IMG/VR virus record: IMGVR_UViG_3300012996_000001 | Coordinates: 1-64,000 of that record | Length of the DNA stretch: 64,000 nucleotides | Source of the DNA: a virus | Taxonomy: Duplodnaviria; Heunggongvirae; Uroviricota; Caudoviricetes | Direction: 5' to 3' (one strand) | In this document: positions 33,841 to 51,568 of the stretch, piece by piece | Layout: each line of letters begins with the position of its first letter | Position numbering within the stretch: position 1 is the first letter of the stretch | Program-made: the position numbers and the translations under genes | The notes under the pieces: model-generated | Databases searched by the model: none | What the model saw: the letters and a program-made list of their open reading frames with translations, nothing else | Told to the model about the DNA's origin: nothing

Positions 33841-34176
33841 ATGCTGATTTACATATACCACCTACCTGTTTTCGAAAAGCGGAGCAAGAAACTCTCTGGC
33901 TGGGAGATGTTGGTATCTGTCAAAGCCAACGATCCGATTTGCCAGGGAATGGATGTTTTAAGTTTCGAAGGTAACGAGAGCCATCTGGTAAGGTTAAGGC
34001 AGATGTTTCGGCAGCAATATGAATACTACCGAGACAGTGCAGAATTTGTTGAAAAAAGCCCTGTGCAGATAATGAGGTATGTGTTAGGATTGCCGGAAAT
34101 AAAACCACCAAAAGACGATGCGTGGGAAGTCAGCATAGCTGAATGGACAGTAAACTACAGAGCGGAGAAAATATGA
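33841..34176 (+). CDS. hypothetical protein (111 aa)
   Basis: AAGGAG RBS. Confidence 0.45.
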   Translation: MLIYIYHLPVFEKRSKKLSGWEMLVSVKANDPICQGMDVLSFEGNESHLVRLRQMFRQQYEYYRDSAEFVEKSPVQIMRYVLGLPEIKPPKDDAWEVSIAEWTVNYRAEKI

Positions 34177-34319
34177 CAAAAGAATATATGGAGGGGCACC
34201 ACTGGGGCTTTAAACACGGTATGTTTGAAAACAAAAATCCCTACCGTCCAGGATCTCTCCAGTTTGAACACTGGGAGTTAGGCTTTAAAAAAGGTTATCA
34301 ATCTAAGGGGTGGTTATGA
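34173..34319 (+). CDS. RMF (ribosome modulation factor)-like mini-protein, 48 aa
   Basis: Not in the track because it is under 60 aa. MTKEYMEGHHWGFKHGMFENKNPYRPGSLQFEHWELGFKKGYQSKGWL parallels E. coli Rmf (..RGYQAGIAGRSKEMCPYQ...QRSQWLGGWREA), with the pattern G[FY].xG......PY......W..G[FW]..G. ATGA overlap on both sides. Confidence 0.35.
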   Translation: MTKEYMEGHHWGFKHGMFENKNPYRPGSLQFEHWELGFKKGYQSKGWL

Positions 34320-34537
34320 GCGGAGGTATAGAAAAAACGTACCTGTTCGAAGGTGGCACAGTACCAGGTAAATTTTTTGATGATGTCTATAAACCGCCTT
34401 GTGGTGAGAAACATCTCCGGGTTTTTGAGTCCGGTGTAACCAACTGGGGTGATGATACCGAGGTGGTTGTGTCGGGAGATTGCGAAGAGACCTTTGACGA
34501 ATATATGTCAAACTGGGCAGGGAATATTAAAAAATGA
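34316..34537 (+). CDS. hypothetical protein (74 aa)
   Basis: AAGGGG RBS. Confidence 0.4.
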   Translation: MSGGIEKTYLFEGGTVPGKFFDDVYKPPCGEKHLRVFESGVTNWGDDTEVVVSGDCEETFDEYMSNWAGNIKK

Positions 34538-35778
34538 AAGTTTACTTAGTCGGTGGTGCAGTACGTGACGAGATCATGGGTGTAAAAAGTAAAGATCGAG
34601 ACTACGTTGTTGTAGGGTCAACCCATGAAGAGATGATTTACTTAGGTTACACCCAAGTTGGTGCAGCGTTTCCTGTTTATCTTCATCCTGAGACCAAAGA
34701 GGAGTATGCCCTCGCCCGAACTGAGAAATCAACCGGACCAGGATACCACGACTTTGAGGTAGTCTTTGGACCTGAGGTGACTATCGAAGAAGACCTTTAT
34801 CGCCGTGATCTCACGATCAATGCCATCGCCAAAGATTTAGATACCGGAGAGTACATCGATCCTTTCTTCGGTGAGGCGGATATCCAAAATCGCAGCCTAC
34901 GCCCTGTGTCGGAAGATTCTTTCAAAGAGGATCCTCTCCGCATTTATCGCTTGGCTCGGTTTGCGGCCCGATATTCGGATTTCTCTATTACAGATGAGGC
35001 TTACCTGTTGTGCCGAAAGGCAAGCGCGGGATTACCCCATCTGCCCAAAGAGCGGAAATTTGCAGAGATCAATAAATGTTTCTCAGACACGAGTGTTGCC
35101 AACAAGCCCTCTAAGATGATCGAGCTTTTGGTAAATCTTGGTGAATTCCCTGAACTCCGGGCTTTGGTGGGTATTCCTCAGCCGGAAAAATATCACGCGG
35201 AAGGCGACCCGTTTACTCATACACTGATGGTATTGGATGCTGCAAACGACAAAGGATGCCACCCTGAAACGCAGTGGGCGTGCCTGTGTCATGATTTAGG
35301 TAAGGTTTGCTACGACACGTTTGGTAATCTGCACGGACATGAGTCCTATGGCGTTCCTATCGCAGAGCAAATGTGTGATCGATACGGAGTACCTAAGTAT
35401 TGGAAACGTCTTGCCTTGGTTGTGACTGAGAACCACGGTCGTATGCACAAAGTCTTGGAGATGACTCCTAAAAAGGTGTACAGTCTGATGCAACGGATCT
35501 CTGCTGAAAAAGATAGTGATTTCGCTCATAAGGTTATGGATGTGTCTGTTGCGGACAGTCAGGGGAGAATCCCAAGTGTGCAAAACTACCCGCAGGCATT
35601 TGTTATGACCCAGTGCATGTCAGAACTGAAAAAGAATATCGATGAGATTTCGGATGAGTGTTCGAAGATTGCTAAAAAATATGCTGGACGACCCGAACTA
35701 ATTCGTGATAATGTTACTGCGTTGAAGGTAAGGTATGTTGCCAAGGCGCTTAAAGAAGCGAAAAACCTAATAAACTAA
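34534..35778 (+). CDS. cca: CCA-adding tRNA nucleotidyltransferase with HD domain
   Basis: Very close to E. coli Cca: MKVYLVGGAVRDEIMGVKSKDRDYVVVGST...FPVYLHPETKEEYALARTE...RRDLTINA...EDPLRIYRLARFAARY, plus HD motif CHDLGK. Confidence 0.85.
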   Translation: MKVYLVGGAVRDEIMGVKSKDRDYVVVGSTHEEMIYLGYTQVGAAFPVYLHPETKEEYALARTEKSTGPGYHDFEVVFGPEVTIEEDLYRRDLTINAIAKDLDTGEYIDPFFGEADIQNRSLRPVSEDSFKEDPLRIYRLARFAARYSDFSITDEAYLLCRKASAGLPHLPKERKFAEINKCFSDTSVANKPSKMIELLVNLGEFPELRALVGIPQPEKYHAEGDPFTHTLMVLDAANDKGCHPETQWACLCHDLGKVCYDTFGNLHGHESYGVPIAEQMCDRYGVPKYWKRLALVVTENHGRMHKVLEMTPKKVYSLMQRISAEKDSDFAHKVMDVSVADSQGRIPSVQNYPQAFVMTQCMSELKKNIDEISDECSKIAKKYAGRPELIRDNVTALKVRYVAKALKEAKNLIN

Positions 35779-35787
35779 GGAGACGAC

Positions 35788-36114
35788 ATGACAATTTATT
35801 TGGTAGGGGCGATTGTAAGCTGCATTGTCTGGTTTTTGCTGACAAAGGCACGTATCCGTGGATTTTATATCCCCGGTCCTAATATCCTTGATTTAGAGGG
35901 GCCGATCCTACCACCCCTCGGAGTAAAAGATCGATTTGAATTACGTGCGGTGATGGTGGTTTGGCTACTTTTTACTTTCGCTTGGCCTTTATGCTGGGCT
36001 TGGCTAATTTTCTTCACAACGGTAGTTTGGTTGGCGTATGCAATTGTGAAACTTTGGTCAGTTACGTTGGGAAATGAAAAGCTTTTGCGTAAAATCTTTG
36101 GGGTGGAAAAATGA
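35788..36114 (+). CDS. membrane protein (108 aa, 3 TM)
   Basis: Hydrophobic ORF. Confidence 0.4.
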   Translation: MTIYLVGAIVSCIVWFLLTKARIRGFYIPGPNILDLEGPILPPLGVKDRFELRAVMVVWLLFTFAWPLCWAWLIFFTTVVWLAYAIVKLWSVTLGNEKLLRKIFGVEK

Positions 36115-36578
36115 AAAGCCGTATGTATTTCTTGGTCAATCAGTATATTCTAGGTATCCAAGCCGGGATTCAGGCAGGTCATGCGGCTGTTGAACTTTTA
36201 AACGACTACCGGGACGCTGATCCGGGCTTGTGCCCAAAGAAGAGGCTGATCGATGACTGGGCAGATAACCACAAGACCTTTATCCTCTTGGAGGGTGGTT
36301 ATCAGCAAAGAATGTACGATTTTGTGGAAGATGTTTTGTTACCTGTTAACGAAATAATTCCCTACGCCACGTTCAAAGAGGAAGTTGATGCTTTGAACGG
36401 TGCATTAACGGCTGTAGCCTTTGTACTACCTGAGTACATCTATAACTGTACGGTGTTTGATGACGGGACGGCACCTTTGCACTACTGGCATCCGGAGACA
36501 GATCATCTTGCTGAGTTCACACAGGAAGAAAGAACGTTAATCAGTGAACTTAAAAAGTTCCGTTTAAAAGGGGGTTGA
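36111..36578 (+). CDS. hypothetical protein, weak PTH2-like (peptidyl-tRNA hydrolase 2) resemblance
   Basis: N-terminus FLVNQYILGIQAGIQAGHAAVELL loosely parallels Pth2 [25 protein letters not shown]. Unverified. Confidence 0.3.
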   Translation: MKSRMYFLVNQYILGIQAGIQAGHAAVELLNDYRDADPGLCPKKRLIDDWADNHKTFILLEGGYQQRMYDFVEDVLLPVNEIIPYATFKEEVDALNGALTAVAFVLPEYIYNCTVFDDGTAPLHYWHPETDHLAEFTQEERTLISELKKFRLKGG

Positions 36579-36579
36579 T

Positions 36580-36876
36580 ATGTTAGAGTATTTTGAACAC
36601 GCGGCGACAGCAAGTATATTTCTGAGGGATCTCGTGGCCCACTGGTATGTTTGGTGGCCCGTTGGGATAGTGATCTTCGTTATCATGGTGAGGTGTTGTC
36701 GAGATGAGTTCTGCGATGCTTTTTCAGGGACCGTAGCCGGGGCGGTGATGGGTTCAGTTCTTGGATTTATTTGGCCCGGTATCGTTGTTACTGCACCCTT
36801 TTGGTTGCCTATCCTGTTGGTAATGGTGATCGCAGTAGTTGCGGCATGTATCGTTAATAAAGTATGGAGTCGTTAA
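36580..36876 (+). CDS. membrane protein (98 aa)
   Basis: Hydrophobic ORF. Confidence 0.4.
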   Translation: MLEYFEHAATASIFLRDLVAHWYVWWPVGIVIFVIMVRCCRDEFCDAFSGTVAGAVMGSVLGFIWPGIVVTAPFWLPILLVMVIAVVAACIVNKVWSR

Positions 36877-37259
36877 TGAAAGTAAAAGACTTGATCGCTG
36901 AATTAGAGCAATGTAACCCTGAGGATAATGTGGTTATCCCGGTGGAACTCGGATACCCGACACTGGGTGGACATCCGATTGTTAATGTTACCCGGATTCA
37001 GCGAGGTTTTGACTGGGATAGCCGTAAAGTATTTTTGTATCCTGACGAAGGAAATAGTTTGACACCTATGTCGAAGGATCAGTATACTTCCCTCATCCAA
37101 TACAAACAGCTTGTAATGGGTATGCGTGGGAAGGAAGAACTGGCGGGTCTGTCGGACATCTTTGTCCGGAAAGAGTTTGTTATTAATCTGCTTAAGACAC
37201 TTAGCGAAGTACCTTTCGACACTGAAATCATGACTGCAATCAAAGAGGAACAACTGTAA
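36876..37259 (+). CDS. hypothetical protein
   Basis: GGAG RBS. Confidence 0.4.
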   Translation: MKVKDLIAELEQCNPEDNVVIPVELGYPTLGGHPIVNVTRIQRGFDWDSRKVFLYPDEGNSLTPMSKDQYTSLIQYKQLVMGMRGKEELAGLSDIFVRKEFVINLLKTLSEVPFDTEIMTAIKEEQL

Positions 37260-37657
37260 TGGAACCTATCTGGCAATATGTGACGCTGACTGTATTTTTC
37301 TCCTTGGGTGTTATTCTGCACATCCTTGGGGTGGGGATTATCGCTGCGGCAAACAGCGTCAAAGCCAACATGGAGAAAAAACCTATTGAACCGCTGACGA
37401 GTAATGGGCTATTTTTCAAACTGCTCATCGGTTCTTTCGCGATGTACTTGTCCTACAGCCTGTATGTTTGGTCACCAGGATTTTTAGGTACAACTATCTT
37501 GATTATTCACTGGGCATCTGTGATCTCTTCCTTCTTGGGTCAGTTACTTTCCGCAGGCCGCTATCCTAAGTATAGCGTAGCTAAAGAAGTTTTCGGTCTG
37601 CTACGTTCACTGTTCATGTTAGGCTTGATTATTAGTTACGGTGTTGTATGTCTCTAA
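37259..37657 (+). CDS. membrane protein (132 aa, 4 TM)
   Basis: Hydrophobic ORF. Confidence 0.4.
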   Translation: MEPIWQYVTLTVFFSLGVILHILGVGIIAAANSVKANMEKKPIEPLTSNGLFFKLLIGSFAMYLSYSLYVWSPGFLGTTILIIHWASVISSFLGQLLSAGRYPKYSVAKEVFGLLRSLFMLGLIISYGVVCL

Positions 37658-37744
37658 CAAGAGACTGTACTAATTGTGACAACTTCATCCGGGTGAAAAA
37701 GCCCGGGTGGGTTGGTCTCTGCGATTTGCACGACTGGAGGATTG

Positions 37745-38239
37745 ATGGAAAACTTGATGATCCCGGGTGAGTTGGCCCGGGCATTGAGCATAGACTACCA
37801 CAGGACTTTCCTGTGTGTACGTTGGGCAGAATCGCATATCGCGGAAGGGAAGATAGACGACTATGGAGGACAGGCTAAGGAGGTTGTTGAGGGAATTTAT
37901 GTCCGGCTAGAGTCTAATCACTTGGAGTACGATGTCAAAGAAGGTAAAATTATAAATTTAAGCCAAGGGATTTTAAAGAATTATCTTGAGGATATCTCCA
38001 AGCCAAAGGGAGAAGAATTGTCACTCTTCCGATTGTGTGAACCTCAGGAATATGATAGACTTTGTAAAGAAGCATCAAAGTACAGTATGATTTTTAGTAG
38101 GCCCCACAGTTGTATGTTGCATTACATAATTCAAGAGAAGCTTTGTTCGGGTTGTAATTCGATCCGCAGTCGTGTTAACTACGATACGGGAAGTGAGTGG
38201 AAATATTTTTGCGGACGAGGCCCACGCTGCTGTCCGTAA
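37745..38239 (+). CDS. hypothetical Cys-rich protein
   Basis: GGAGG RBS. C-terminal CSGC...CGRGPRCC. Confidence 0.4.
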   Translation: MENLMIPGELARALSIDYHRTFLCVRWAESHIAEGKIDDYGGQAKEVVEGIYVRLESNHLEYDVKEGKIINLSQGILKNYLEDISKPKGEELSLFRLCEPQEYDRLCKEASKYSMIFSRPHSCMLHYIIQEKLCSGCNSIRSRVNYDTGSEWKYFCGRGPRCCP

Positions 38240-38248
38240 GGAGGATTA

Positions 38249-38509
38249 ATGGACAGTAAGAAAGGTTATCATTTAGCAGATATAGAAAAAAGGCGTTACG
38301 GATCTCTTGGCAAAATCCAAGAAGAAGCCGAGGAGCTACTCGATGCTCATCGCCAAGGGTGCCACATCATGGTGCTGATTGAACTGGCGGATCTTTACGG
38401 GGCCATTGAAGGTTTCTTGGCCGAAAATTATCCAGACAGGACTATGGCGGACTTGAAAAAGTTCTCCGACATAACCCGAAGAGCATTTGTCAACGGGCAC
38501 AGGCAGTAA
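38249..38509 (+). CDS. small MazG/HisE-like NTP pyrophosphohydrolase (86 aa)
   Basis: EEAEELLDAH....VLIELADLYGAIEGF matches the all-alpha NTP-PPase EExxE / ELADL pattern. Confidence 0.4.
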   Translation: MDSKKGYHLADIEKRRYGSLGKIQEEAEELLDAHRQGCHIMVLIELADLYGAIEGFLAENYPDRTMADLKKFSDITRRAFVNGHRQ

Positions 38510-38527
38510 TAACCCAACGGAGAAGTT

Positions 38528-39127
38528 ATGAAACACCCGGTAGATTTGAAACTGATAACGGATGCAGCTTTCTGGTGGTCTTCTCGTGGGTTCAGGGAAA
38601 CCGCTGTGCCTGCAATGGTATGCAAAGAGGTGATGGACCATACGGTTCCGCCTGGCGCTGTTGACCTTCGACTAGAAGGTTTTGATCGTGATTGCGTGGT
38701 GGCATCGGCTGAGCAGTCTTTTCTCCAGTTAGAGCTTGACGGGGAGTTGAGCTACGGTGACTGGATGGCACTCACCCCGTGCTACCGCTATGAAACCAAC
38801 CATGACGAGATTCACTTACCCGTTTTCCTCAAGCTGGAGTTATTCTCGCTTCCGGAGGGGCCGGATGAGAAAGAGATGCAGACAGCAGCACTACGTCTTG
38901 CCACCAAATTCCAAGATATGTTTTTTGATATCCGAGGCATCCCGACGGAGATTAAAGAGACAACCGAAGGTTGGGATGCATATTACCGTGGTATTGAACT
39001 CGGATCCTTCGGTGTAAGACGTACCTTACGCAATCAACTCTACCTTTATGGCACAGGGATCGCGGAACCGAGAGCATCTTTTGTGATCCAAAAACACTCG
39101 GAAGGTGAAATAGCTAATTTTGCATAA
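38528..39127 (+). CDS. minimal class II aminoacyl-tRNA synthetase-like catalytic core (EpmA/LysRS/AsnA-like), 199 aa
   Basis: Motif 2-like CYRYETNHDEIHLPVFLKLELF (class II FRNE...H.PEFT.LE). YYRGIELGSFGVRR parallels EpmA/LysRS EVYYKGIELANGF. Motif 3-like YGTGIAEPRASF (GLGIDRL). Confidence 0.45.
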   Translation: MKHPVDLKLITDAAFWWSSRGFRETAVPAMVCKEVMDHTVPPGAVDLRLEGFDRDCVVASAEQSFLQLELDGELSYGDWMALTPCYRYETNHDEIHLPVFLKLELFSLPEGPDEKEMQTAALRLATKFQDMFFDIRGIPTEIKETTEGWDAYYRGIELGSFGVRRTLRNQLYLYGTGIAEPRASFVIQKHSEGEIANFA

Positions 39128-39330
39128 ATTTGCACTGCAAGGCATAACCTATCGTAACGATCTGTGCGATAGGTATTTTCGATGCATTTAAATTGATTTA
39201 AGCGTATTAATTGTGAAAAGGGTATTTTGTTGTGTAAATTGACAACATCTTAACTTTGTCAATAGTCTTCTGTTGTATTTTTGCATAACATGGTAAAATG
39301 GTTGCGCAGAAACTACAACGGGAGAAAGCT

Positions 39331-39774
39331 ATGTTTTACACATATGTTAATCAACTTCCGATGGTGGAGGGAAACCTCCGGTTGAGCCGGGGTGACCGCT
39401 TGAATTATTCTTGTGGGATCCTGAGGAAATCGAAGCCGGACTCCGAGGGCTTTCGAGCTTTTGTGCTGTATGACAAAGCCCGAGGGGTAGGTTATCGCAT
39501 AAACCGTAATGGTATGATGGTGGAATACCCTGATCACCAGGTTTTTGTAGGTAACCCGGAGGAACTGAAACACACCCCTTTTGCTGTGACTGGAGACGAG
39601 GCTGAGATTAACTCCTTCCTTCTGCTCTGCGGTAGAATAACTGAAGAGCACAAGCATAGACAATCTTTCGTTAACAGATTACGGTATTACACAACAGAGC
39701 CTGTCGGCAAGTTAATCCTTGCAGGCGGGATCATTTACGCCATTATCACACTTATAGTGCTGATCTTTGGGTGA
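39331..39774 (+). CDS. hypothetical protein with C-terminal TM anchor
   Basis: GGGAGAAAG RBS. Preceded by AT-rich promoter region 39135-39300. Confidence 0.4.
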   Translation: MFYTYVNQLPMVEGNLRLSRGDRLNYSCGILRKSKPDSEGFRAFVLYDKARGVGYRINRNGMMVEYPDHQVFVGNPEELKHTPFAVTGDEAEINSFLLLCGRITEEHKHRQSFVNRLRYYTTEPVGKLILAGGIIYAIITLIVLIFG

Positions 39775-39779
39775 CACAG

Positions 39780-39814
39780 GTCGGCTACCGTAAGGTGGTC
39801 GGCCTTTTTCTTTG
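39780..39814 (+). terminator. rho-independent terminator
   Basis: An 11-bp stem with three G-U pairs, GTAA loop and a TTTTTCTTT tail. Confidence 0.5.
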
Positions 39815-39822
39815 GGGGTTTT

Positions 39823-40167
39823 ATGACTCAGGTGGGTATTTTCTTTAAGGGTGCGTTACCGGATGTGACTAAACTACCGCCCAGTGCAGAGAGAGGAGAT
39901 GCCTACTTGGTCGGCGGGGTGACCTACGCCTACATGAACGGAACGTGGTTGCAACTAGGGGCTCAATTGAACAATTTTTTCCAAAACAATTTGTGTTACT
40001 CAGGGGTAGCTGTTACTCTACTTTCAGAAAATGACTTAGAGTCTTTGTTCATCTGCCCAATCGATTTGTCGGAAGAAGATCTGGAGTTTTTCAAGATCAC
40101 CTACCCGGAAGATTACCGTACATTTGAGTATCTCTGGAAAGGGGCGGATAAGGTAAGGGTTGCATAA
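39823..40167 (+). CDS. paralog family member 1 (114 aa)
   Basis: C-terminal module EDLEFFKITYPEDYRTFEYLW. Confidence 0.45.
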   Translation: MTQVGIFFKGALPDVTKLPPSAERGDAYLVGGVTYAYMNGTWLQLGAQLNNFFQNNLCYSGVAVTLLSENDLESLFICPIDLSEEDLEFFKITYPEDYRTFEYLWKGADKVRVA

Positions 40168-40189
40168 AACATAAAGAGGGTAACGGTAA

Positions 40190-40702
40190 GTGAGAAAATC
40201 AACTGAAGAGATATCGAGAGAAGTCTTTGGAAAGGGAGCCAGGATGCTGGGATGGAAAAGTTGGTTCGTATTCCAGCCTTTTTTCAAAGAGATAGAAAAA
40301 CATGTTGCCAAGTCTAAAGAAGTAGGTTCCAGAAAGGACATGCTGATGAAAGGTGGCGTCAGCGCCAGCCACTTCGATGGAAAAGGTATTTATCTCAAAC
40401 TAGATAGCGAAAACGGGGACCTCGTATACTTCTCATTACCGGGGTCGTACAATGCCGAATTGTTAGTATATGCAGAGGATAGTGTTTATTGTCCAAGTAA
40501 AGACATTAAAAAGCCCTTGGGTAATATTTTCGATGACCCTCAGAAACCCAGCTTTGAAGAGTTGGATGCTTTCACCGTAATCTACGGGAATGAAGATGTA
40601 TTGTTGGACATCGCTCATGAATTTTTACCTGCAATAATTGCATTCAATAAATCGGCTGTTAAAAACAGCTTGTCTGTACAGTGGCTGGAGAAATGGTTCT
40701 GA
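40190..40702 (+). CDS. paralog family member 2 (170 aa)
   Basis: GTG start. C-terminal EELDAFTVIYGNEDVLLDIAHEF. Confidence 0.4.
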   Translation: MRKSTEEISREVFGKGARMLGWKSWFVFQPFFKEIEKHVAKSKEVGSRKDMLMKGGVSASHFDGKGIYLKLDSENGDLVYFSLPGSYNAELLVYAEDSVYCPSKDIKKPLGNIFDDPQKPSFEELDAFTVIYGNEDVLLDIAHEFLPAIIAFNKSAVKNSLSVQWLEKWF

Positions 40703-41151: not shown

Positions 41152-41179
41152 ATGAACAGTAATATTCTTGTAAAATCTC

Positions 41180-44159: not shown

Positions 44160-44193
44160 GTTGAAGAATTCAAGAAATACCAAGGGGTGAAAG

Positions 44194-44415: not shown

Positions 44416-44941
44416 AGACTTTAAAAGAGAGCAGTTCAAGTCTCTCATGAAGGAACTTACCACCGACTGGACTTGGGCAAATATCCAGCAGCTACCTGGA
44501 GTAGAGAAGCTGGTACGTACAGAGACTGGCCGTTACCGCCGGGACATGCGGACTTCTTTTACTCCGAAGGCGGGATACACCCTTAAATTTGAACTGGGGC
44601 ATGGATCGATGGCTAGCTCGTGCAGTGACAACAAACCCCGTATGGTTATTCGCCGACGGGCCAAAAACCAATATGATGAAAAACTCGTGGTGCAGTGGGA
44701 GGCCGACCACGACAAGGGCCTTTGGATACGCGTCCATAATGAGTTCGTATCAAAGCCTCATCGCTGTCTGGTAAACGTCCAAGAATTCTTTATGGACCCT
44801 TGCGATGTGCAGGATTCCGAGATAGACTTCATGAACACACTATACCCAGACATCTTTTACGCTTTGCCGTACCTGAGTGATTGGATCGCAGAATTGCCGG
44901 GTAAGCTGAGGTATGATGCAACCAAGGGTATTATTCTATGA
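44405..44941 (+). CDS. paralog family member 7
   Basis: N-terminal LTTDWTW (compare member 3). C-terminal DSEIDFMNTLYPDIFYALPYLSDW. Confidence 0.45.
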   Translation: MQVEDFKREQFKSLMKELTTDWTWANIQQLPGVEKLVRTETGRYRRDMRTSFTPKAGYTLKFELGHGSMASSCSDNKPRMVIRRRAKNQYDEKLVVQWEADHDKGLWIRVHNEFVSKPHRCLVNVQEFFMDPCDVQDSEIDFMNTLYPDIFYALPYLSDWIAELPGKLRYDATKGIIL

Positions 44942-45165
44942 AAGCCTGTAGAAGCGCTGAAAGATGGAAGGGCGATCAATACGGCATGGTACTTATGATA
45001 GTCAAAACCCCGCTTCTAAACCGGGCCATCCTCGTGCCAGCAGCGGTAAGGGACTTCCTGAAGGATGAAGACCCGGATTACTGGGTGCAGGGAGATTTCT
45101 CACTCTTACAGGTCGTGTTCCCAGAGTGGCACGACTACATTTTAAAAGAACTTGAAATAATTTAG
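44938..45165 (+). CDS. hypothetical protein (75 aa)
   Basis: ORF. Confidence 0.35.
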   Translation: MKACRSAERWKGDQYGMVLMIVKTPLLNRAILVPAAVRDFLKDEDPDYWVQGDFSLLQVVFPEWHDYILKELEII

Positions 45166-45173
45166 GAGGTTAT

Positions 45174-45359
45174 ATGCAGCATTTGCCAAAACACATCACT
45201 GAGATCGCTCTCAAGTCGCTGACAAACGAGGCGCTGGTAGAGCGCATGTGGGAAGTCCGCGCCCAACTAATGCGGGATCCTCACAATGGCCTGGTCAGGA
45301 ACTTGCTTAAGAATTTCACCAAAGAAATGACACACCGGGGAATGTTGAATGCTGAGTGA
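45174..45359 (+). CDS. hypothetical protein (61 aa)
   Basis: ORF. Confidence 0.35.
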   Translation: MQHLPKHITEIALKSLTNEALVERMWEVRAQLMRDPHNGLVRNLLKNFTKEMTHRGMLNAE

Positions 45360-45534
45360 AAAAGAACTCCAAGAGCGCTACGAGGAGGAAATGGAGAAGA
45401 ACATACAAATGCTGGAACGTCGTAACGCCGGGGAGTGTGAAGGCTGCGGCGGTAAACCTGATCCTGGTGAACCCACTGAAGAAGAGCCTTATCTTCTTTG
45501 TCACTCCTGCTATGTAAAGGCGTTTTGCTTATGA
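45349..45534 (+). CDS. hypothetical Zn-ribbon protein (61 aa)
   Basis: CEGCGG...CHSC. Confidence 0.35.
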   Translation: MLSEKELQERYEEEMEKNIQMLERRNAGECEGCGGKPDPGEPTEEEPYLLCHSCYVKAFCL

Positions 45535-45764
45535 AAAAGTATGTGTATGAATTGTATAACGAAAAGGCAGACTGCCTCGACGGTGTCAAGCGACTGTCGG
45601 TAGGGTACTTCACAAGTTTACCCGAGGTGAGGGCCTACGTTGAAGGTAGTCGGCCCGATTTCAGTCCGGAAGACTTCTCTTGTTTCCGGTACGGTTTCAA
45701 TCCAAAACCTAACGACAAGATTTATGCCGGGATCCGTGTCGATATCTACTCGGAGGTTAAATAA
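45531..45764 (+). CDS. hypothetical protein
   Basis: ORF. Confidence 0.35.
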   Translation: MKKYVYELYNEKADCLDGVKRLSVGYFTSLPEVRAYVEGSRPDFSPEDFSCFRYGFNPKPNDKIYAGIRVDIYSEVK

Positions 45765-46072
45765 TGGGCTGTTTTATTTTCCTTGTGTTGGCGATAATCC
45801 TCGGCTATATTGCATGTATAGCTATTGCGAAGAAAAAGCCTAAGAAGACCCTGATCATGTATGGCTATCCGCCGTACGGTAAGGTCTGGCTATCCATCTA
45901 CCACCGCAGGAAGACTGATGAGTGGATATTTGAATGGGATGACCTGTTTGATGACGGACGCCCCAGCGACTGGGGACACATCAGTGAAGACTTCATGTTT
46001 GCGGACAAGGCGGCAACGAAAGAAGAAATTCAGAGTGCCCGTAAAAAACTGAAAAAGAGAGGATATTACTAA
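45764..46072 (+). CDS. hypothetical membrane-anchored protein (102 aa)
   Basis: ORF. Confidence 0.4.
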   Translation: MGCFIFLVLAIILGYIACIAIAKKKPKKTLIMYGYPPYGKVWLSIYHRRKTDEWIFEWDDLFDDGRPSDWGHISEDFMFADKAATKEEIQSARKKLKKRGYY

Positions 46073-46500
46073 TGACTTACACAATGCAAAAGTACCTGAA
46101 GGACTGGCTATGGTGGGCAACCGCAAGTGAAAAAGATTGCGGCACACTTCGCTACAAACTCCTGTCTACGCGGCTAGTCGGTGGTGTCGGGTTGTGTGAC
46201 AACCCTATTTTCTGGGCTGCGGATCCGGAGACAGCGGAAGGACTGAAGAGGGAGATGGATGCGATGCTGGCAAAAGAGTTTCCAGGCAAGGCTTTCCCTT
46301 TCAATATCGATACCCGTCACTATATTTCAGAGGCGAGCTTCAGCATTTGCCACAAAAATGCAAAGCGTGTTTCTTGGGTACGTGAAAAACTGGCCGAAAT
46401 GGATACTCAGTTGGCGGCAATGCAGGAACTCACTGACTTAGGGCAGGAGATTCAAAAATCAGCCGAAATGCACAATATTTCAGTTAAAATGCAGAAATAG
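46072..46500 (+). CDS. hypothetical protein (142 aa)
   Basis: ORF. Confidence 0.4.
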   Translation: MTYTMQKYLKDWLWWATASEKDCGTLRYKLLSTRLVGGVGLCDNPIFWAADPETAEGLKREMDAMLAKEFPGKAFPFNIDTRHYISEASFSICHKNAKRVSWVREKLAEMDTQLAAMQELTDLGQEIQKSAEMHNISVKMQK

Positions 46501-46558
46501 CTGAAAAATTAGCAAAAATTGCAGGTATTCTTCAAGTTTTAGGCCAAAAAGAGGATTT

Positions 46559-46939
46559 ATGATACCTTTTACTGCAAGGATTGGGCACATAACCGAGATG
46601 TGCCGCACGAAAGAAAACCCCGATACGAGAGCATTCCGCTGGAATACCCCGGGTCCTAAATGGGTTTTACTGCACAGTTCCGCAGAGGAAGCTACCATTT
46701 GTGAGAAAAGGCATGAGCGCAGATGCCGCCTGATGATAAGGGCTATAATAGCGGCACAGGATATTTTCCGGCAGAGAAGGGAGGGAGGAGATTTCCTTTG
46801 CACATACCGCCAACTTAGGCGAATGCTAATTGAACTTGGTAATTTGAAAAAGCCGGAGAGAGAATATCTGCACCACTCGTTTCATGTCGTATCTTTTGGA
46901 GCGACTGCTATCCCTTGGGGATTGGAGAGAATGTCATGA
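46559..46939 (+). CDS. hypothetical protein (126 aa)
   Basis: ORF. Confidence 0.4.
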   Translation: MIPFTARIGHITEMCRTKENPDTRAFRWNTPGPKWVLLHSSAEEATICEKRHERRCRLMIRAIIAAQDIFRQRREGGDFLCTYRQLRRMLIELGNLKKPEREYLHHSFHVVSFGATAIPWGLERMS

Positions 46940-47163
46940 TCAAGAGTTTCATCCTCTGGATGATTTTTGCACCGTTCGGCCTCATGCTAGCTGGGCTTAT
47001 CGCGGCTTGTATGGGGGTTGGTTTGGTTTGCTTTTTGACTTGGGATCCTGAACCTTTTAGAATTTTCCTTGATGGGTTTGATAATGTACCCTGGATGAGT
47101 GTACGACTAGCTTACCTTGTTTCATTTGTCTTATCTGTGGCTGTATGGCCTTTTGGAGACTGA
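46936..47163 (+). CDS. membrane protein
   Basis: ORF. Confidence 0.35.
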   Translation: MIKSFILWMIFAPFGLMLAGLIAACMGVGLVCFLTWDPEPFRIFLDGFDNVPWMSVRLAYLVSFVLSVAVWPFGD

Positions 47164-47167
47164 TCGA

Positions 47168-47548
47168 ATGTCTGATTACCGATACAAAAACCCTCAAGCC
47201 GAGGGCTACGTGAAGTTTATAGTGCCAGTAAAGACTCATAAAAAGTTCTTCCCTAAAAGTGTTACACGCCGGGGATCTTTAATTGAGTATTACTACAATC
47301 CTGAAACAGAGACCCTTAAAATACAACGCTTTACAAAGGCTTGGGCCAGAGTTTTGCTTATACTGCTGTTGTTTATCCCGGCGATTTTTATGCAGGGGAT
47401 CCCTGAGACGATCAAGGACACGAAGGAATTGTTCTTTGAACGCAAGTATGGAAAGTTCGTTGAAGACATTGTCTTCATGAACTACAATGACAACGCAGAC
47501 CTGGAAAAGTTAGTCAAGGCGGAATACTCAAAAAGGAAGGTGATGTAG
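47168..47548 (+). CDS. hypothetical membrane-associated protein
   Basis: ORF. Confidence 0.35.
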   Translation: MSDYRYKNPQAEGYVKFIVPVKTHKKFFPKSVTRRGSLIEYYYNPETETLKIQRFTKAWARVLLILLLFIPAIFMQGIPETIKDTKELFFERKYGKFVEDIVFMNYNDNADLEKLVKAEYSKRKVM

Positions 47549-47805
47549 TGGACTACGTTATTGTAAAGAAAGAAATTTATGAGGGGACGCGGCTGGTAGA
47601 GAAGCGGTATTATATCAAGCGGCGATTTGGTGGTATATTTTACAGATTCCTGACTCAATATGACCACGAAACAGAAAAGCAACTACCTTTGTATTACAAC
47701 GACTTCTCCGATGTGGAAAATCACATCAAAGAAGACCGAAAAAAGCGTAAGATTTTTCGCACAGAGACAACACTACTGGATGAGGTGGGGAGGCCATTGA
47801 AATGA
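47548..47805 (+). CDS. hypothetical protein (85 aa)
   Basis: ORF. Confidence 0.35.
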   Translation: MDYVIVKKEIYEGTRLVEKRYYIKRRFGGIFYRFLTQYDHETEKQLPLYYNDFSDVENHIKEDRKKRKIFRTETTLLDEVGRPLK

Positions 47806-47990
47806 CAACAACCAATAAACTGCCGCTGGTTCCTGACAGCCCTGAAGAAGAGGAACTGGAACAGCGAGTCTTTGATTTCCTTTACAACCAAGAGGATGTC
47901 CGTGTACCTCCGGAGGCAGAAGAGATTATCAAAGAACTGTGGGCTGAGGTTGTCAAGCGCCAGGTTTGGTACGAAGAAAAAACGGAGTGA
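47802..47990 (+). CDS. hypothetical acidic protein (62 aa)
   Basis: ORF. Confidence 0.35.
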   Translation: MTTTNKLPLVPDSPEEEELEQRVFDFLYNQEDVRVPPEAEEIIKELWAEVVKRQVWYEEKTE

Positions 47991-48196
47991 TGATGAAAAA
48001 TTTCCGAGTAGTCCGGGTTGAATACGACCATTTCCTGTGCGGAACCAAGGAGACCTACGCCCTCCAGCGCCGCATCGGTATATTCTTTTGGTACACCGTT
48101 TACCATTGCGACAGCGTGACGCAGTGTATGACCTGTTATCGCAACGTCAAGAATAAGAAGGAGCGTATCATTCGTGTCCTCCATAAGCACCCCTGA
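47990..48196 (+). CDS. hypothetical protein
   Basis: ATGA overlap with the upstream stop. Confidence 0.35.
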   Translation: MMKNFRVVRVEYDHFLCGTKETYALQRRIGIFFWYTVYHCDSVTQCMTCYRNVKNKKERIIRVLHKHP

Positions 48197-48641
48197 GGTA
48201 AACTACGAAGTATGGAATCAGGCCCTTCGTAGAAGTCGCCGGAGAGGTAAAATACTGGTTATCTACCAGGCAGGTAGCTTGTCCCACGCAGAGCTTTGCA
48301 AAAAAGACAAACTGAAGGAATTTTATTTCTTAGGGGGCGATAAAGATCCTGTCCGGTGTGTGTCGGGTATGGAGTTGAGCGGCCTGATCATGGAGCCGGG
48401 GACTGTTTTTAACAGGGACCAGATGGGTTACATCCTTGGCCGGATGAAAGCGCCGGATGATGAGTGGATATTTATTCTTGACGAAAATCAATGGCTAGCC
48501 ACAGCCAGTTATCTCCAAGAGGCTCAGGAGATACTGAACAACAAGGAGAGAATAGCTAAGTTTATGAAAGATATAGACATTGCCCTTGACAGGGGAGAGT
48601 ACCTTAAACGTTGCTGGGGGTATGAAAAATGGCAGCAATAA
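48174..48641 (+). CDS. hypothetical protein (155 aa)
   Basis: ORF. Confidence 0.4.
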   Translation: MSSISTPEVNYEVWNQALRRSRRRGKILVIYQAGSLSHAELCKKDKLKEFYFLGGDKDPVRCVSGMELSGLIMEPGTVFNRDQMGYILGRMKAPDDEWIFILDENQWLATASYLQEAQEILNNKERIAKFMKDIDIALDRGEYLKRCWGYEKWQQ

Positions 48642-48910
48642 AGTTAGACCAGATGACTACTTTACAGATGTTAGCAGCAGAGGCTCTCTATAGGAAATGT
48701 TGTAGCCAGAAAGAAAGTAATTTTTACGCAACAGGTCTTGTGCGTATCTATTACAAGGCATCTATGAATGTGCGTAAGAGATGTTTGCCCCGGGGTAAAG
48801 CTTATGCAAGAGCATACCGCAGAGAAATGAACCCGAACATAGACTTCAGTTTGCCCGTGGGAGACCCGGAAAGATATAGCCACATGAAGAAAAGGTTGTG
48901 GAGTAAGTGA
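48629..48910 (+). CDS. hypothetical protein (93 aa)
   Basis: ORF. Confidence 0.35.
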   Translation: MAAIKLDQMTTLQMLAAEALYRKCCSQKESNFYATGLVRIYYKASMNVRKRCLPRGKAYARAYRREMNPNIDFSLPVGDPERYSHMKKRLWSK

Positions 48911-48955
48911 TCGCCTGATATACTCTTCGTAACCTAAATAAAAAGGAACGCGATC

Positions 48956-49150
48956 ATGACAAAAAACTACGATGCCCCAGACTTGCCTTTCACTCGTGAG
49001 CAAGTCCAAGACATGCTTACTTGGGAACCTTTCGAATCTTTAGATCGGTGCTACAGGAGCTTGGAAAGGAACGGTAGGCTCATGGGAGAGGTACAAAGAT
49101 ACCGCATCCTACTGGTCCTTGGTGTGATAGAGGAGAACATAAGACTATGA
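48956..49150 (+). CDS. hypothetical protein (64 aa)
   Basis: ORF. Confidence 0.35.
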   Translation: MTKNYDAPDLPFTREQVQDMLTWEPFESLDRCYRSLERNGRLMGEVQRYRILLVLGVIEENIRL

Positions 49151-49332
49151 CTTTATCATCTGATTTCAAATCGAGGGTAGATCGTAAAACCAAGGAAATG
49201 TCGGACGAACAAATCCTCCTGATGATAAATTGTTCAAGCAAGATCGCGAATGAGCGACCGGACCTTTTTACTGTGGCTTACGCACTGGTCCACTTTGTAG
49301 AAGAAGCCGAGAAGAGAGGTTTACTGAAATGA
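49147..49332 (+). CDS. hypothetical protein (61 aa)
   Basis: ORF. Confidence 0.35.
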   Translation: MTLSSDFKSRVDRKTKEMSDEQILLMINCSSKIANERPDLFTVAYALVHFVEEAEKRGLLK

Positions 49333-49772
49333 GCATTTACCATCGCACCCAGCCAACTAAAGACTCTTGCATGGCGACCTGCATCGCAATGTTGGCAGAT
49401 TTAGATGTTGACTTTGCCTACGGGCGCTGGCACAAGAAGTTTCAGAACAGGAGCGCCTGGTTAGACACGGCGCTGGATGTGTATAACATCCCGTACTTTT
49501 ACGGCAGTCCTCGCGAAGCTCGTCTGAACAAAGGCTTCGCCTATTTGCTGTGCGTGCCGAGCCTGAACATCCGTGGTGGTCTGCATCAAGTGGTGGCGCT
49601 GTACCCGCACAACGCTGAACCGGGAAAAGTTACGATCCTCGATCCTGTAAAGGGCCGTGGAGGATTTCACTACATATACCATCAAGAACCGAATGAGGAA
49701 GATAAAGAGGTTGAGTTAATATCCTGGACTATCGACCTCGCAATTCCTCTTTGTGAAGGAGCGGCATCATGA
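49329..49772 (+). CDS. papain-like (C39-like) cysteine peptidase candidate
   Basis: N-terminal QPTKDSCMATCIAM resembles the C39 Q...CG.A motif. A later LHQVVALY supplies a candidate catalytic His. Confidence 0.3.
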   Translation: MSIYHRTQPTKDSCMATCIAMLADLDVDFAYGRWHKKFQNRSAWLDTALDVYNIPYFYGSPREARLNKGFAYLLCVPSLNIRGGLHQVVALYPHNAEPGKVTILDPVKGRGGFHYIYHQEPNEEDKEVELISWTIDLAIPLCEGAAS

Positions 49773-49966
49773 GCAATATGGAAAATTCAAGAGTTGAAGA
49801 CGTCCCTCACGTCATAAAGGACTCTGATGGGACAGTTGTAGCTATCGCACGCAATCTCGACATGGCCGAGAGTTTAGCTTCTGCCAGTCGGGAAGGATTC
49901 TGTGTGATAAGGGAAGCGGACGAAGATGACATAGCGGCGTTTGGACGCCGTCTGGTGGACGCATGA
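49769..49966 (+). CDS. hypothetical protein (65 aa)
   Basis: ORF. Confidence 0.35.
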   Translation: MSNMENSRVEDVPHVIKDSDGTVVAIARNLDMAESLASASREGFCVIREADEDDIAAFGRRLVDA

Positions 49967-50118
49967 CTCTCGGCATCGTAATCCTCGGCGGGTTCCTGCT
50001 GATAATAGCGGCGGGGGTGGTTGGGTATTACTTCGAGCGTTACCTAGATAGACGCTGGGCCAAGCAGGCCACAGAACGTATCTGGGAAAAACGCGATCAA
50101 TGGCTAAAGAGGGGCTAG
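49963..50118 (+). CDS. small membrane peptide (51 aa)
   Basis: ATG overlapping the upstream stop. One TM helix. Confidence 0.3.
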   Translation: MTLGIVILGGFLLIIAAGVVGYYFERYLDRRWAKQATERIWEKRDQWLKRG

Positions 50119-50119
50119 T

Positions 50120-50353
50120 ATGACGGAAGTTTACCGCACGATCACCTTTATGAACGATACCCCTGGTGCCGGGCTGGAAGTGGGAATAAAATACCCGATT
50201 ATCGAAATAAATGGGATTAATACGATAGTCGATCAGAACGGGAATTATCACAATGAACCGAAAGATTCTAAGTTTTTAGACTATTGCCAGCCCTACTACT
50301 CTTTGCAAATAGTTAAATACGATGCCGAGACTCGGCTGTGGACGATGGTTTAG
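50120..50353 (+). CDS. hypothetical protein (77 aa)
   Basis: ORF. Confidence 0.35.
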   Translation: MTEVYRTITFMNDTPGAGLEVGIKYPIIEINGINTIVDQNGNYHNEPKDSKFLDYCQPYYSLQIVKYDAETRLWTMV

Positions 50354-50368
50354 GACAGGAGATATACT

Positions 50369-50707
50369 GTGGTAAAAGAAGATGACTGGCTGAAGGGACC
50401 TTTAGGTGTGCAGGAGTACCGCTTGAAAGAAGAGCCGGATTTTCGCGCTAACCTTTCATTCAAGCCGGACGAGAATGGTATTTTCTACGCAACACCGGAG
50501 TTCAGGACGCATGAGGACAGCGAGGATTGTTTCGGATGGTGGGCTTCTTACGGAGGTACGCTGTACGGCCCTGGTCCCAGAGGCCGCACCTTTTTGATTT
50601 CAAAAGAGGGCTTGTCTGAAAAGGAAATGGCATACCTGATCAAAGGCTTCAGTGGATTCGGAGAATTCAAGGAGAGAGGGGATATCCTGATGTGGACCTT
50701 TAAATAA
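50369..50707 (+). CDS. hypothetical protein (112 aa)
   Basis: ORF. Confidence 0.4.
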   Translation: MVKEDDWLKGPLGVQEYRLKEEPDFRANLSFKPDENGIFYATPEFRTHEDSEDCFGWWASYGGTLYGPGPRGRTFLISKEGLSEKEMAYLIKGFSGFGEFKERGDILMWTFK

Positions 50708-50743
50708 AGGTTGGGAGTTGACTCTGAAAAAGGAGATAAAATC

Positions 50744-51028
50744 ATGACACACAAAGACTGCGAGATTTGCCAAGAACAGGAAGACACAGTTAAAGGTATT
50801 CGACTGCTCCAACGGGCCATCGAAACCAGCATCTACCTCATGGTGGATAGGTCGGATAAAGCCGTTAAAGAAGAGCGGGATGCTCGGGCAGCGTTCGAAG
50901 CTTTCGTTGCTGAATTCCCACACTTGGCCCCAACAATAAAGGACTCTCCTGAAGAGTCCCAACAGGAAGAACCGCCTGAAGAGGCTAACCAGTCGTCTGC
51001 CTTAAGAGTCGGACCTGTTCTGTATTGA
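50744..51028 (+). CDS. hypothetical protein
   Basis: AAAGGAGA RBS. Confidence 0.4.
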   Translation: MTHKDCEICQEQEDTVKGIRLLQRAIETSIYLMVDRSDKAVKEERDARAAFEAFVAEFPHLAPTIKDSPEESQQEEPPEEANQSSALRVGPVLY

Positions 51029-51040
51029 GGATTTTGTTAA

Positions 51041-51568
51041 ATGGTAGATTTGATAGAGTTGGTGCTACAGGAGCTGGACAAACAAGGGCTTATGGCGTAT
51101 GTTGCTGGAGGTTTTGCACGGGACATGTTCTTCGGCACAAGCTTTGCCAAGGATGTCGACATAGCTTGTGTTTCGGTCAGTGATCGCGGACGGGCTGCGG
51201 CATTCCTAGAGCAGGCACTCCCTTTAAAAACGGGGTTGATTTTCCAGTCTTCAAGGACACTTCCACTGTCATGTTGCCAAGGGATTACTGACATATTCAA
51301 ATTCAAAAGTAAGTCTGGGTTTGGGTTGGATATCCTGTTGAAGAATAACTGTCAGACATTGCAGCAGGTTATGGATAACGTTGATTATAATCTCTCTCAG
51401 TTTGCATTGGTTGAGGGGACACCTAGATACTTAGGTAAAACCGATCTGAGGGTTCTGCACAAAGTAAGGACTTACGTCAGCGATCCCCGTGAAATAAAGA
51501 TGCAGCAAAGGCACACAGAGTTGTTACCCACAATACGGTCTTGGTATGATAGTGGATTACTGATCTAA
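51041..51568 (+). CDS. minimal Pol-beta-superfamily nucleotidyltransferase (CCA/poly(A)-polymerase head-domain-like), 175 aa
   Basis: AYVAGGFARDMFFGTSFAKDVDIA matches the G[GS]x9-13DxD NTase signature and the Cca head GGAVRDxxxGxxxxDxD. Confidence 0.45.
   Translation: MVDLIELVLQELDKQGLMAYVAGGFARDMFFGTSFAKDVDIACVSVSDRGRAAAFLEQALPLKTGLIFQSSRTLPLSCCQGITDIFKFKSKSGFGLDILLKNNCQTLQQVMDNVDYNLSQFALVEGTPRYLGKTDLRVLHKVRTYVSDPREIKMQQRHTELLPTIRSWYDSGLLI

Follow-up and report, generated by a model that had tools for sequence, protein, structure and literature searches.

Large phages carry CCA-adding enzymes, PTH2 proteins, and RlaP nucleotidyltransferases (NTases) for tRNA repair and ribosome rescue after host attack (PMC7824862). 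A gene block of this kind was analyzed in positions 1 to 64,000 of the IMG/VR record IMGVR_UViG_3300012996_000001, a virus of the Caudoviricetes; this whole stretch of 64,000 nucleotides is referred to as the window. The block contains a cassette of two genes, one encoding a small MazG/HisE-like protein and the other a minimal class II aminoacyl-tRNA synthetase (aaRS) core resembling seryl-tRNA synthetase (SerRS), hereafter the mini-aaRS. The Cca/PTH2 set of the block, joined by RlaP in the closest relatives, matches the published sets of large phages, and the module as a whole is thus of a type described before; the cassette adds a new variation on the theme of aaRS paralogues.

The mini-aaRS core aligns with bacterial SerRS (class IIa) over motif 1 with its VP, TPCxRxE, FxKxE, ExxS, and G[ST]GxAxxR. 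In contrast to the 430 residues of SerRS, most phage cores have 173-200 residues, and the cores have a shortened insertion before motif 3 and no arm, are restricted to phages, and are paired or fused with a MazG-like protein. The family is also distinct from the aaRS paralogues Bll0957 (an amino acid:carrier-protein ligase), AsnA, EpmA/GenX, and HisZ, being nearer to SerRS in its motifs and having no carrier protein, EF-P-type target, or HisG near the core. We know of no requirement for a MazG-like partner in any of these paralogues. MazG/HisE (PRA-PH) proteins, including phage MazG and MazZ, share with the cassette's small protein a length of about 85 aa, the EExxE...ExxD signature, and recurrent weak matches to PF01503 and PF03819, while the phage protein differs by its own N-terminal GYH, its C-terminal TxRAFxxGxR, and its linkage to the aaRS core.

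Pairing of the MazG-like gene with the mini-aaRS

The MazG-like gene and the mini-aaRS gene constitute an obligate, phage-restricted cassette. Eighty IMG/VR loci were retrieved with the aaRS alignment alone, and the partner was sought by a small-protein hidden Markov model (HMM) within 4 kb. A MazG-like partner on the same strand occurred in 77 of the 80 loci: 58 carried it upstream and 9 downstream of the core, and 10 carried a fusion. Of the unfused pairs, 52 of the 67 either overlapped, typically by 4 nt, or were separated by no more than 20 nt. The same pairing was present in 14 of 16 contigs of metagenome-assembled genomes (MAGs). By tblastn, the MazG-like protein was found in 268 and the mini-aaRS in 275 phage records of the same genera and of many lineages, with mini-aaRS and MazG-like counts of 112 and 113 for Escherichia, 61 and 59 for Acinetobacter, 13 and 13 for Caulobacter, 10 and 10 for Pectobacterium, and 8 and 8 for Cronobacter. 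Clustering of the neighbouring open reading frames (ORFs) of the 80 loci yielded no third family in more than 8 of them.

The small protein is encoded upstream of the core in the Acinetobacter T4-like phage PhT2 and the Caulobacter phage CcrColossus, and adjacent or nearly adjacent to it in the window and in Certrevirus. In phi92, a gene annotated with a MazG fold precedes a ‘histidyl tRNA synthetase’, which a YqeY-like gene follows, and in the Stenotrophomonas phage RAS14 one ORF separates the MazG-like gene from the core. The order is swapped in LR745206, a 635-kb phage, with the MazG-like gene after the core, and in the Microcystis phage MaMV-DL01 the MazG-like part is fused to the C-terminus of the core. 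Conservation of order across unrelated phages, the occurrence of both orders, and repeated fusions form the classical signature of two subunits with one function. The fused form was also observed on two GVMAG-S-... contigs labelled as giant-virus MAGs (L067 and L083), which are either mis-binned phage contigs or a fusion outside tailed phages. Among open-access papers and bioRxiv preprints, no paper was found that treats the pair as a unit, and a description elsewhere is possible; the genome paper of phage RXM lists its neighbouring ‘MazG’ (g118 and g119) and ‘SerRS’ (g121) under unrelated functions (PMC8953757).

The mini-aaRS gave no match in the single-sequence Pfam search. Single-sequence PDB searches with the mini-aaRS, the PTH2-like ORF, and the 175-aa NTase described below returned nothing significant, so that family profiles and structure models were needed. 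In total, 240 mini-aaRS homologues were found, and nearly all of the 120 matches listed were 167-235 aa long. An alignment of 37 sequences showed SAEQSF, PCxRxE, FxKxE, ExGSxGxR, and TGxxEPR to be invariant, and the family profile matched SerRS catalytic domains first in the PDB (1.7e-5), followed by PylRS and AsnRS. With hhalign, E. coli SerRS aligned at an E-value of 3.7e-7, which placed SAEQSF, TPCYRxE, and FLKLE opposite PTAEVPL, TPCFRSE, and FDKVE, and in the C-terminal part ELGS..R and YGTGIAEPR opposite EISSCSN and NGSGLAVGR, respectively. In the T. thermophilus SerRS complexes, the corresponding residues are the amino-group loop, the motif-2 Arg/Glu, the Glu and the Thr/Ser for the serine hydroxyl, the Mg ligands, and the motif-3 Arg. 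Both the synthetase fold and the active site are conserved in the family, and the aaRS-like core named in an initial annotation of this DNA thus holds, with class II motifs 1, 2, and 3 kept and SerRS as the best profile match.

The mini-aaRS starts about 10 residues before motif 1, its model has no N-terminal coiled-coil arm, and its motif-2 loop is 7 residues shorter than that of E. coli SerRS and less basic. Relatives are held in BFVD as ‘uncharacterized’ viral structures. A collection of 185,579 species, each represented by a single genome, contained only 16 loci, all of them on MAG contigs, and the family is essentially viral. An identity as the HisZ-HisE pair of the histidine pathway was rejected, since the catalytic arginines of motifs 2 and 3 are kept, SerRS gives the best alignment, and HisG is not a conserved neighbour. 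HisZ itself lacks the motif 2/3 arginines, and E. coli uses the long-form HisG without HisZ.

The 86-aa partner is probably a MazG/HisE-like pyrophosphohydrolase, judging from its motifs and profile matches. Such an identity had been proposed in the initial annotation; it is supported by the divergent members, of which 7 of 9 matched PRA-PH (PF01503) and 1 of 9 matched MazG (PF03819), and by an EExxE...ExxD acidic signature that is invariant in the family, while the protein of the window itself stayed below the threshold (PRA-PH at 17.0 bits against a cut-off of 21.3; TIGR03188 at 0.013). GYH, K22, E25, E26, E29, D32, E45, D48, T76, A79, F80, and R85 were invariant. Annotators of phi92 and of Acinetobacter phages independently chose a MazG-like designation.

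Further domains were associated with individual cassettes. Directly downstream in phi92 lies a YqeY (GatB-tail-like) gene (L007, 5523-5957; PF09424, 5e-7), a helix-hairpin-helix domain of the RNA polymerase alpha C-terminal domain (alpha-CTD) is fused to the core in CcrColossus (L009, 3243-3500; 3e-6), and an RF-1-like domain, in which no GGQ is visible, is fused to the MazG-like partner at L072 (3576-3989; 9e-5). A cupin-like HxH domain, a possible dioxygenase, is fused to the partner or encoded beside the core and partner in five loci (the N-termini at L037, L039, L051, and L059, and L108 at 4516-5211), and belongs to phrog_4784. Its PDB matches were designed repeat proteins and were discarded as spurious, which left a weak ‘cysteine dioxygenase’ PHROG match. 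tRNA genes occurred within 4 kb of the cassette in 19 of 97 loci, several cassettes are embedded in large tRNA arrays or border on them (L032, L035, L038, L040, L053, L058, and others), and in Vequintavirinae the cassette stands in a block with Cca, the PTH2-fold protein, and RlaP. Together, the YqeY, alpha-CTD, and RF-1-like links and the context of tRNA arrays and Cca-PTH2-RlaP favour tRNA, RNA, or the ribosome as the acceptor side.

Table 1. Positions of the cassette and of further features in the window
Feature	Position	Strand	Basis
MazG/HisE-like small all-alpha protein, 86 aa (phrog_6408), probable	38249..38509	+	Weak Pfam match, motifs, adjacency
Minimal class II aaRS catalytic core, SerRS-like, 199 aa (phrog_4806)	38528..39127	+	Family profile, hhalign
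Cca of the E. coli type (class II CCA-adding/repair), HD domain at the C-terminus, predicted	34534..35778	+	Pfam, NF008137, phrog_2244
PTH2-fold protein, divergent branch, 155 aa (phrog_3668)	36111..36578	+	AlphaFold2 model, family alignment
Cys-rich protein (phrog_12113)	37745..38239	+	tblastn, direct sequence comparison
Mini-protein, 48 aa (phrog_26347, unknown function)	34173..34319	+	Pfam RMF at 15.8 bits against a gathering score of 27.9
Head-only class II (CCA/PAP-type) NTase, 175 aa, predicted	51041..51568	+	phrog_1614 (7e-20), family profile
tRNA array, 10 genes	48..2693	-	ARAGORN; Rfam tRNA, 52-66 bits
Terminator-like hairpin just 3' of the mini-aaRS gene	39147..39174	+	Consensus scan (weak evidence)

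tRNA-related genes around the cassette

The phage of the window is a large Vequintavirinae-like myophage of the enterobacterial type. DNA-level similarity to known phages was confined to one 250-bp stretch (82-85%), and the window proteins were about 55-57% identical to those of Certrevirus phages (PcCB7V, CR3, and KaOmega) and of unclassified Vequintavirinae. All ORFs named in the initial annotation are present, with coordinates that agree with those it gave exactly or to within a few codons, and the clustering it described is real between 33.2 and 39.8 kb, where the gene order is kept in PcCB7V, KaOmega, and LTH01 (Certrevirus and other Vequintavirinae relatives). This order runs from a DNA methyltransferase through a hypothetical protein, the 48-aa mini-protein, Cca, a membrane protein, the PTH2-like protein, and a second membrane protein to a hypothetical protein, a third membrane protein, RlaP (where present), the Cys-rich protein, the MazG-like protein, the mini-aaRS, and a further membrane protein. 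The NTase at 51 kb, which had been placed in the same module, falls outside this conserved block. The tRNA array was confirmed (Gly, Pro, Asp, Trp, Asn, Met, Ile, Lys, Ser-GGA at 2400-2492, and Tyr), but about 31 kb separate it from the block, whose genes run on the other strand.

In the GenBank record of PcCB7V these genes are named ‘CCA tRNA nucleotidyltransferase’, ‘peptidyl-tRNA hydrolase’, ‘nucleotidyltransferase’, ‘phosphoribosyl-ATP pyrophosphatase’, and ‘seryl-tRNA synthetase’, so that the gene list of the initial annotation largely repeats an existing automatic annotation. It did not note that the HisE/MazG-like and aaRS-like genes form one cassette, nor that RlaP has been lost. Among the single-sequence Pfam matches, which it had named as the means of its own refutation, Cca passed and the others stayed below threshold (RMF at 0.015, PTH2 at 0.021, PRA-PH at 0.008, and PolyA_pol for the 175-aa NTase at 0.028 over just 27 residues). 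By that measure the finding would nearly have failed, and the deeper tests made gene by gene changed the picture.

Cca was recognized by Pfam as PolyA_pol (5e-18), HD (6.9e-9), and the RNA-binding domain (5e-4), by phrog_2244 (3.5e-125), and by NF008137, which it matched over positions 1-406 of 409, confirming the Cca with HD domain that had been named before. Its translation shows GGAVRD...DRD, YRRDLTINA (with RRD), KEDPLR (with EDPLR), and the HD dyad, and it is about 57% identical to Cca proteins of Certrevirus phages. Its head, neck, RNA-binding, and HD domains are collinear with E. coli Cca over the full length, while its 385 bits fall under the NCBIfam equivalog cut-off of 451. With this full set of motifs, Cca is predicted to be a complete enzyme that needs no partner.

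For the PTH2-like ORF, the AlphaFold2 model (predicted local distance difference test score 95) establishes a PTH2 alpha/beta fold, so that the weak PTH2 resemblance seen earlier holds at the level of the fold. The match to PF01981 reached 15.5 bits against a gathering score of 23, and in a search of the PDB with a 29-sequence family profile S. solfataricus Pth2 (1xty) was the top match at an E-value of 0.92. The helix motif Q..HA is conserved; when Q21 and H24 are aligned to Q22 and H25 of 1xty, in a register taken from sequence alignment and not from structural superposition, the position of Lys18 is occupied by a nearly invariant Gln17. Lys18, in the GKGK loop of S. solfataricus Pth2, is the residue we take to be catalytic. 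The protein was filed as a divergent PTH2-fold family (phrog_3668) and not as a proven peptidyl-tRNA hydrolase. It differs from archaeal and eukaryotic Pth2 also by its C-terminal extension.

In PcCB7V and KaOmega, an NTase gene of 372-383 aa is flanked by the genes of the third membrane protein and of the Cys-rich protein, and the PcCB7V copy was identified as RlaP (Pfam, 6e-18). LTH01 has a hypothetical gene of 375 aa at the corresponding site; the RlaP identity was assessed for the PcCB7V copy. At 37689-37747 of the window, the conserved upstream element of the relatives' RlaP gene (a CCGGGTGAAAAAGCCCGGG hairpin and GGAGG) and its first three codons (MEN, with the ATG at 37745) are joined straight to the Cys-rich gene, which marks the site of the missing RlaP. 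On this comparison, the phage of the window has lost the RlaP RNA-repair NTase that its relatives carry. An unrelated head-only NTase is encoded 13 kb downstream in this phage. RlaP is under biochemical characterisation (PMC12776372).

The 48-aa conserved mini-protein had been read as RMF-like; its resemblance to RMF is limited to a G..G..G..PY..W..G[FW] pattern. Its family comprises 78 phage records, and PF04957 was weakly touched by 3 of 7 homologues, with a best E-value of 0.015. Aligned to E. coli RMF with hhalign, it reproduced the pattern at a probability of 2.3%; BLASTP against E. coli RMF gave no alignment, and a profile of the 7 homologues matched no RMF chain in the PDB at E-values up to 10. 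Its isoelectric point is 9.1 (K+R 7, D+E 5) compared to 10.9 for E. coli RMF, and in Phapecoctavirus its gene lies among unrelated small genes and not beside Cca. With the Pfam score below threshold as well, the RMF identity was rejected, and control of ribosome hibernation, which had been proposed from it, is left without a basis.

Several further features of the block and its surroundings were observed. A 75-aa ORF at 34310-34537 (phrog_19442, 4e-36) between the mini-protein gene and Cca is probably a lineage-specific insertion; at that site PcCB7V, KaOmega, and LTH01 have no counterpart, and Cca directly follows the mini-protein. Four small predicted membrane proteins interleave the tRNA-related genes (35788-36114, 36580-36876, 37259-37657, and 39298-39774) and are kept in relatives, one of them belonging to phrog_12909, ‘membrane protein, host takeover’. 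The hairpin behind the mini-aaRS gene may be the end of a transcription unit; the window-wide count of terminator-like sites was not above that of shuffles. Between 39823 and 45165, at least eight consecutive small ORFs share the C-terminal motif (D/E)(D/E)(L/I)(D/E)F(F/L)K(V/I)xYP(E/D), with EDLEFFKITYPEDY, GEVEFFKVMYPDL, DELDFLKVMCQEDF, and SEIDFMNTLYPDIF as instances, and look like a tandem paralogue family; their PcCB7V homologues are annotated as hypothetical or ‘tail fiber’. The Rfam scan of the window returned tRNAs only, and PADLOC matched no defence system apart from cross-matches of HD domains to Cas3.

The 175-aa head-only nucleotidyltransferase

A second, minimal NTase with a head of the CCA-adding enzyme and poly(A) polymerase (PAP) type had been named in the initial annotation, and this assignment was confirmed by its family profile, which matched a class II CCA-adding enzyme (6ibp, 6e-10) and poly(A) polymerase (6e-7) in the PDB. 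A word-index homologue search had returned the query alone; an exhaustive HMMER search found 29 relatives of 138-223 aa, and the family HMM also matched Cca of the window (4.6e-5). G23, G24, R27, D28, D38, and D40 (GGxxRD and KDxD) and a third Asp are invariant. The protein thus has GGxxRD, KDxD, a third acidic residue, and a D..R neck remnant in common with the class II head, from which it differs in being a head with a neck stub, without the tRNA-measuring body and tail domains and with FDxNxNQ in place of the motif B RRD.

Of the phage records matching the NTase, 130 of 138 were Pseudomonas phages, those listed having genomes of about 40 kb, and none was a Certrevirus; Cca-bearing relatives contained no homologue. 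Identity to the small NTases of T7-like Pseudomonas phages (gh-1, Phi-S1, and Pf-10) was 29-31% for gh-1-type proteins. The gene is not linked to tRNA genes in its relatives, and in gh-1 (T7-like, 37-kb genome) it lies between lysozyme and primase. gh-1 is presumably without tRNA genes. A division of labour with Cca into CC-adding and A-adding enzymes, the analogy drawn earlier, was rejected, as it needs two full-length enzymes of partial activity, while Cca is motif-complete, the NTase is head-only and has no homologue in the Cca-bearing relatives. By its motifs and distribution, the protein is a real head-only NTase that nothing ties to Cca or to the block.

The NTase gene is the last of the plus-strand block. 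It is followed by a 1.8-kb ORF-poor strand switch (51569-53355), in which transcription changes from plus to minus, the sign of the GC skew flips, and a perfect 17-nt inverted repeat (52716-52732 and 52888-52904) occurs together with several short direct repeats. This region may be a terminator, an origin, or a regulatory region.

Proposed function and alternative explanations

The cassette is tentatively read as a two-component serine-type amino-acid-activating enzyme acting on the ends of tRNA or RNA, to which a probability of roughly 0.45 is given. The demonstrable members of the block all point to tRNA 3' ends. With its motifs fully conserved, Cca would rebuild or repair the CCA end, and the PTH2-fold protein would most likely hydrolyse an ester at the tRNA 3' end, for example of peptidyl-tRNA or N-blocked aminoacyl-tRNA. 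The 86-aa MazG-like protein and the 199-aa SerRS-like core would act as one complex, in which the core, given its motifs 2 and 3, Mg ligands, TxE-type loop, and Ser pocket, is expected to bind ATP and a serine-like amino acid and to form an aminoacyl-adenylate. The acceptor would most likely be a tRNA or RNA 3' end. Pyrophosphohydrolysis by the MazG-like partner would be coupled to this reaction; its role may be to unblock the acceptor, to make it ready, or to remove a nucleotide by-product. As the core has neither the arm nor an anticodon-binding domain, substrate selection would have to come from the partner, from the accessory domains of other phages, or from the host SerRS. Of the tRNA-repair programme proposed in the initial annotation, this retains Cca, the PTH2-fold protein, and the aaRS-like core in the block, to which the closest relatives add RlaP, while hibernation, the split CCA addition, and proximity to the array fall away. 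Cca, the PTH2 fold, the head-only NTase, and the mini-SerRS core along with its MazG-like partner are the solid elements.

Several points weigh against this function. The mini-aaRS has no coiled-coil arm for the variable arm of tRNASer, and its motif-2 loop, which in SerRS contacts the acceptor stem, is the shortened and less basic one described above. Borel and colleagues reportedly found in 1994 that the arm is needed for efficient and specific charging of tRNASer. The PTH2-like protein lacks the Lys that is presumed catalytic in archaeal Pth2. The MazG-like assignment never reached a curated threshold, and MazG-like profiles of 4 and 9 sequences gave coiled-coil chance matches in the PDB, with HisE (2a7w) at an E-value of 0.44, so that the fold is assigned from motifs and from the consistency of the Pfam matches. 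The usual substrates of MazG-type enzymes are free nucleoside triphosphates (NTPs), which suits a role in the nucleotide pool better, and the cupin-like domain on the partner in five loci would suit small-molecule chemistry. The clues from accessory domains are sporadic, with 1-5 loci each. In phages other than Vequintavirinae, neither Cca nor PTH2 is linked to the cassette, and the module may therefore be a lineage-specific juxtaposition.

Some of these points would be accommodated if the cassette worked on nucleotides or on an acceptor other than tRNA, which is considered somewhat unlikely. The MazG-like protein would then turn an NTP or dNTP into the monophosphate, in the way of MazZ for PurZ or of gp56 in T4, and the core would transfer an activated amino acid to a nucleotide, a small molecule, a protein, or a DNA base, in the manner of aaRS paralogues without an anticodon domain such as AsnA, EpmA/GenX, and the amino acid:carrier-protein ligases. 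The absence of tRNA-recognition modules, the shortened motif-2 loop, the use of free NTPs by MazG-type enzymes, and the cupin-like domain with the partner in five loci agree with such a role, as does the use of activated amino acids in phage DNA hypermodification (Mom, Gly-tRNA; PMC13219725). However, the neighbourhood of the cassette shows no conserved gene for a carrier protein or another acceptor, and the YqeY, alpha-CTD, and RF-1-like links as well as the location within tRNA arrays speak for RNA or the ribosome. We also know of no DNA modification shared by the phages that bear the cassette. Decidedly less probable is the absence of any shared pathway, with Cca for tRNA maturation, a PTH2-fold hydrolase, a MazG-like protein for dNTP sanitation, and a separate aaRS-like protein as independent but syntenic auxiliaries. 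The cassette does travel without Cca and PTH2 outside Vequintavirinae, the RMF-like gene lies elsewhere in Phapecoctavirus, the NTase at 51 kb differs in its phyletic distribution, the genes of the block alternate with others for membrane proteins or for proteins without a known function, and genome papers treat MazG and ‘SerRS’ as unrelated (PMC8953757). Yet this would leave the near-obligate adjacency, the overlaps of the translational-coupling type, and the repeated fusions across unrelated lineages unexplained, and the block of the relatives adds RlaP as a fourth RNA-end enzyme.

It is very doubtful that the mini-aaRS heterodimerises with the host SerRS through the motif-1 interface, or that it has a regulatory role in which it senses tRNA or an amino acid like HisZ or GCN2. 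Such a heterodimer would give the phage control of an active site, or one resistant to a toxin or inhibitor, fed by the arm of the host. In SerRS, tRNA binds across the dimer, and the phage protein keeps the motif-1 helix-strand with its conserved VP and an intact active site while the arm is absent. However, the hosts span cyanobacteria to Acinetobacter with divergent SerRS, the obligate MazG-like partner is left unexplained, and a protein with a regulatory role alone would not be expected to keep its catalytic residues intact. The full model of the initial annotation, which combined tRNA 3'-end repair with RMF-like control of hibernation and two NTases sharing CC- and A-addition, is hardly credible. 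PF04957 was a weak top match for three of the seven members of the mini-protein family, hhalign puts G..G..PY..W..G in register with E. coli RMF, and the class II head superfamily includes both NTases; these points stand against the RMF searches reported above, in which Pfam, hhalign, BLASTP, and the PDB all spoke against the identity, and against the lower isoelectric point. Moreover, Cca itself holds all of motifs A-D, and the 175-aa NTase, found almost entirely in Pseudomonas phages, has no body, tail, or RRD and is absent from all Cca-bearing relatives.

The reading of the cassette as an amino-acid-activating enzyme for tRNA or RNA ends has a stronger form, which is held to be unlikely. 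A natural class II core of about 185 aa would then aminoacylate tRNA or RNA 3' ends without an arm or anticodon domain, with the pyrophosphohydrolase partner unblocking, gating, or proof-reading that end, as a tRNA-rescue counter-defence against toxins that modify 3' ends. To our knowledge, a core of this length would be the smallest natural class II synthetase, near the size of an ‘urzyme’. If this were true, the cassette, in two subunits or sometimes a single chain, would have a mechanism not seen in cellular aaRS paralogues. Candidate toxins to be countered would be toxSAS/CapRel, which act by pyrophosphorylation, and MenT/AbiE, which act by nucleotidylation, the latter with a marked preference for tRNASer (PMC11541572).

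The presence of Cca, PTH2, and RlaP in large phages was already known, and they fit the published survival of host defences that target translation. What is new is a tiny SerRS-like core that is tied or fused to a MazG-like protein across hundreds of phages, among them enterobacterial myophages, cyanophages, and jumbo phages. The pairing defines a functional unit and corrects the split annotation as ‘seryl/histidyl-tRNA synthetase’ and ‘MazG for dNTP scavenging’. The cassette also offers a natural minimal class II synthetase for asking how little protein the activation and transfer of an amino acid needs.

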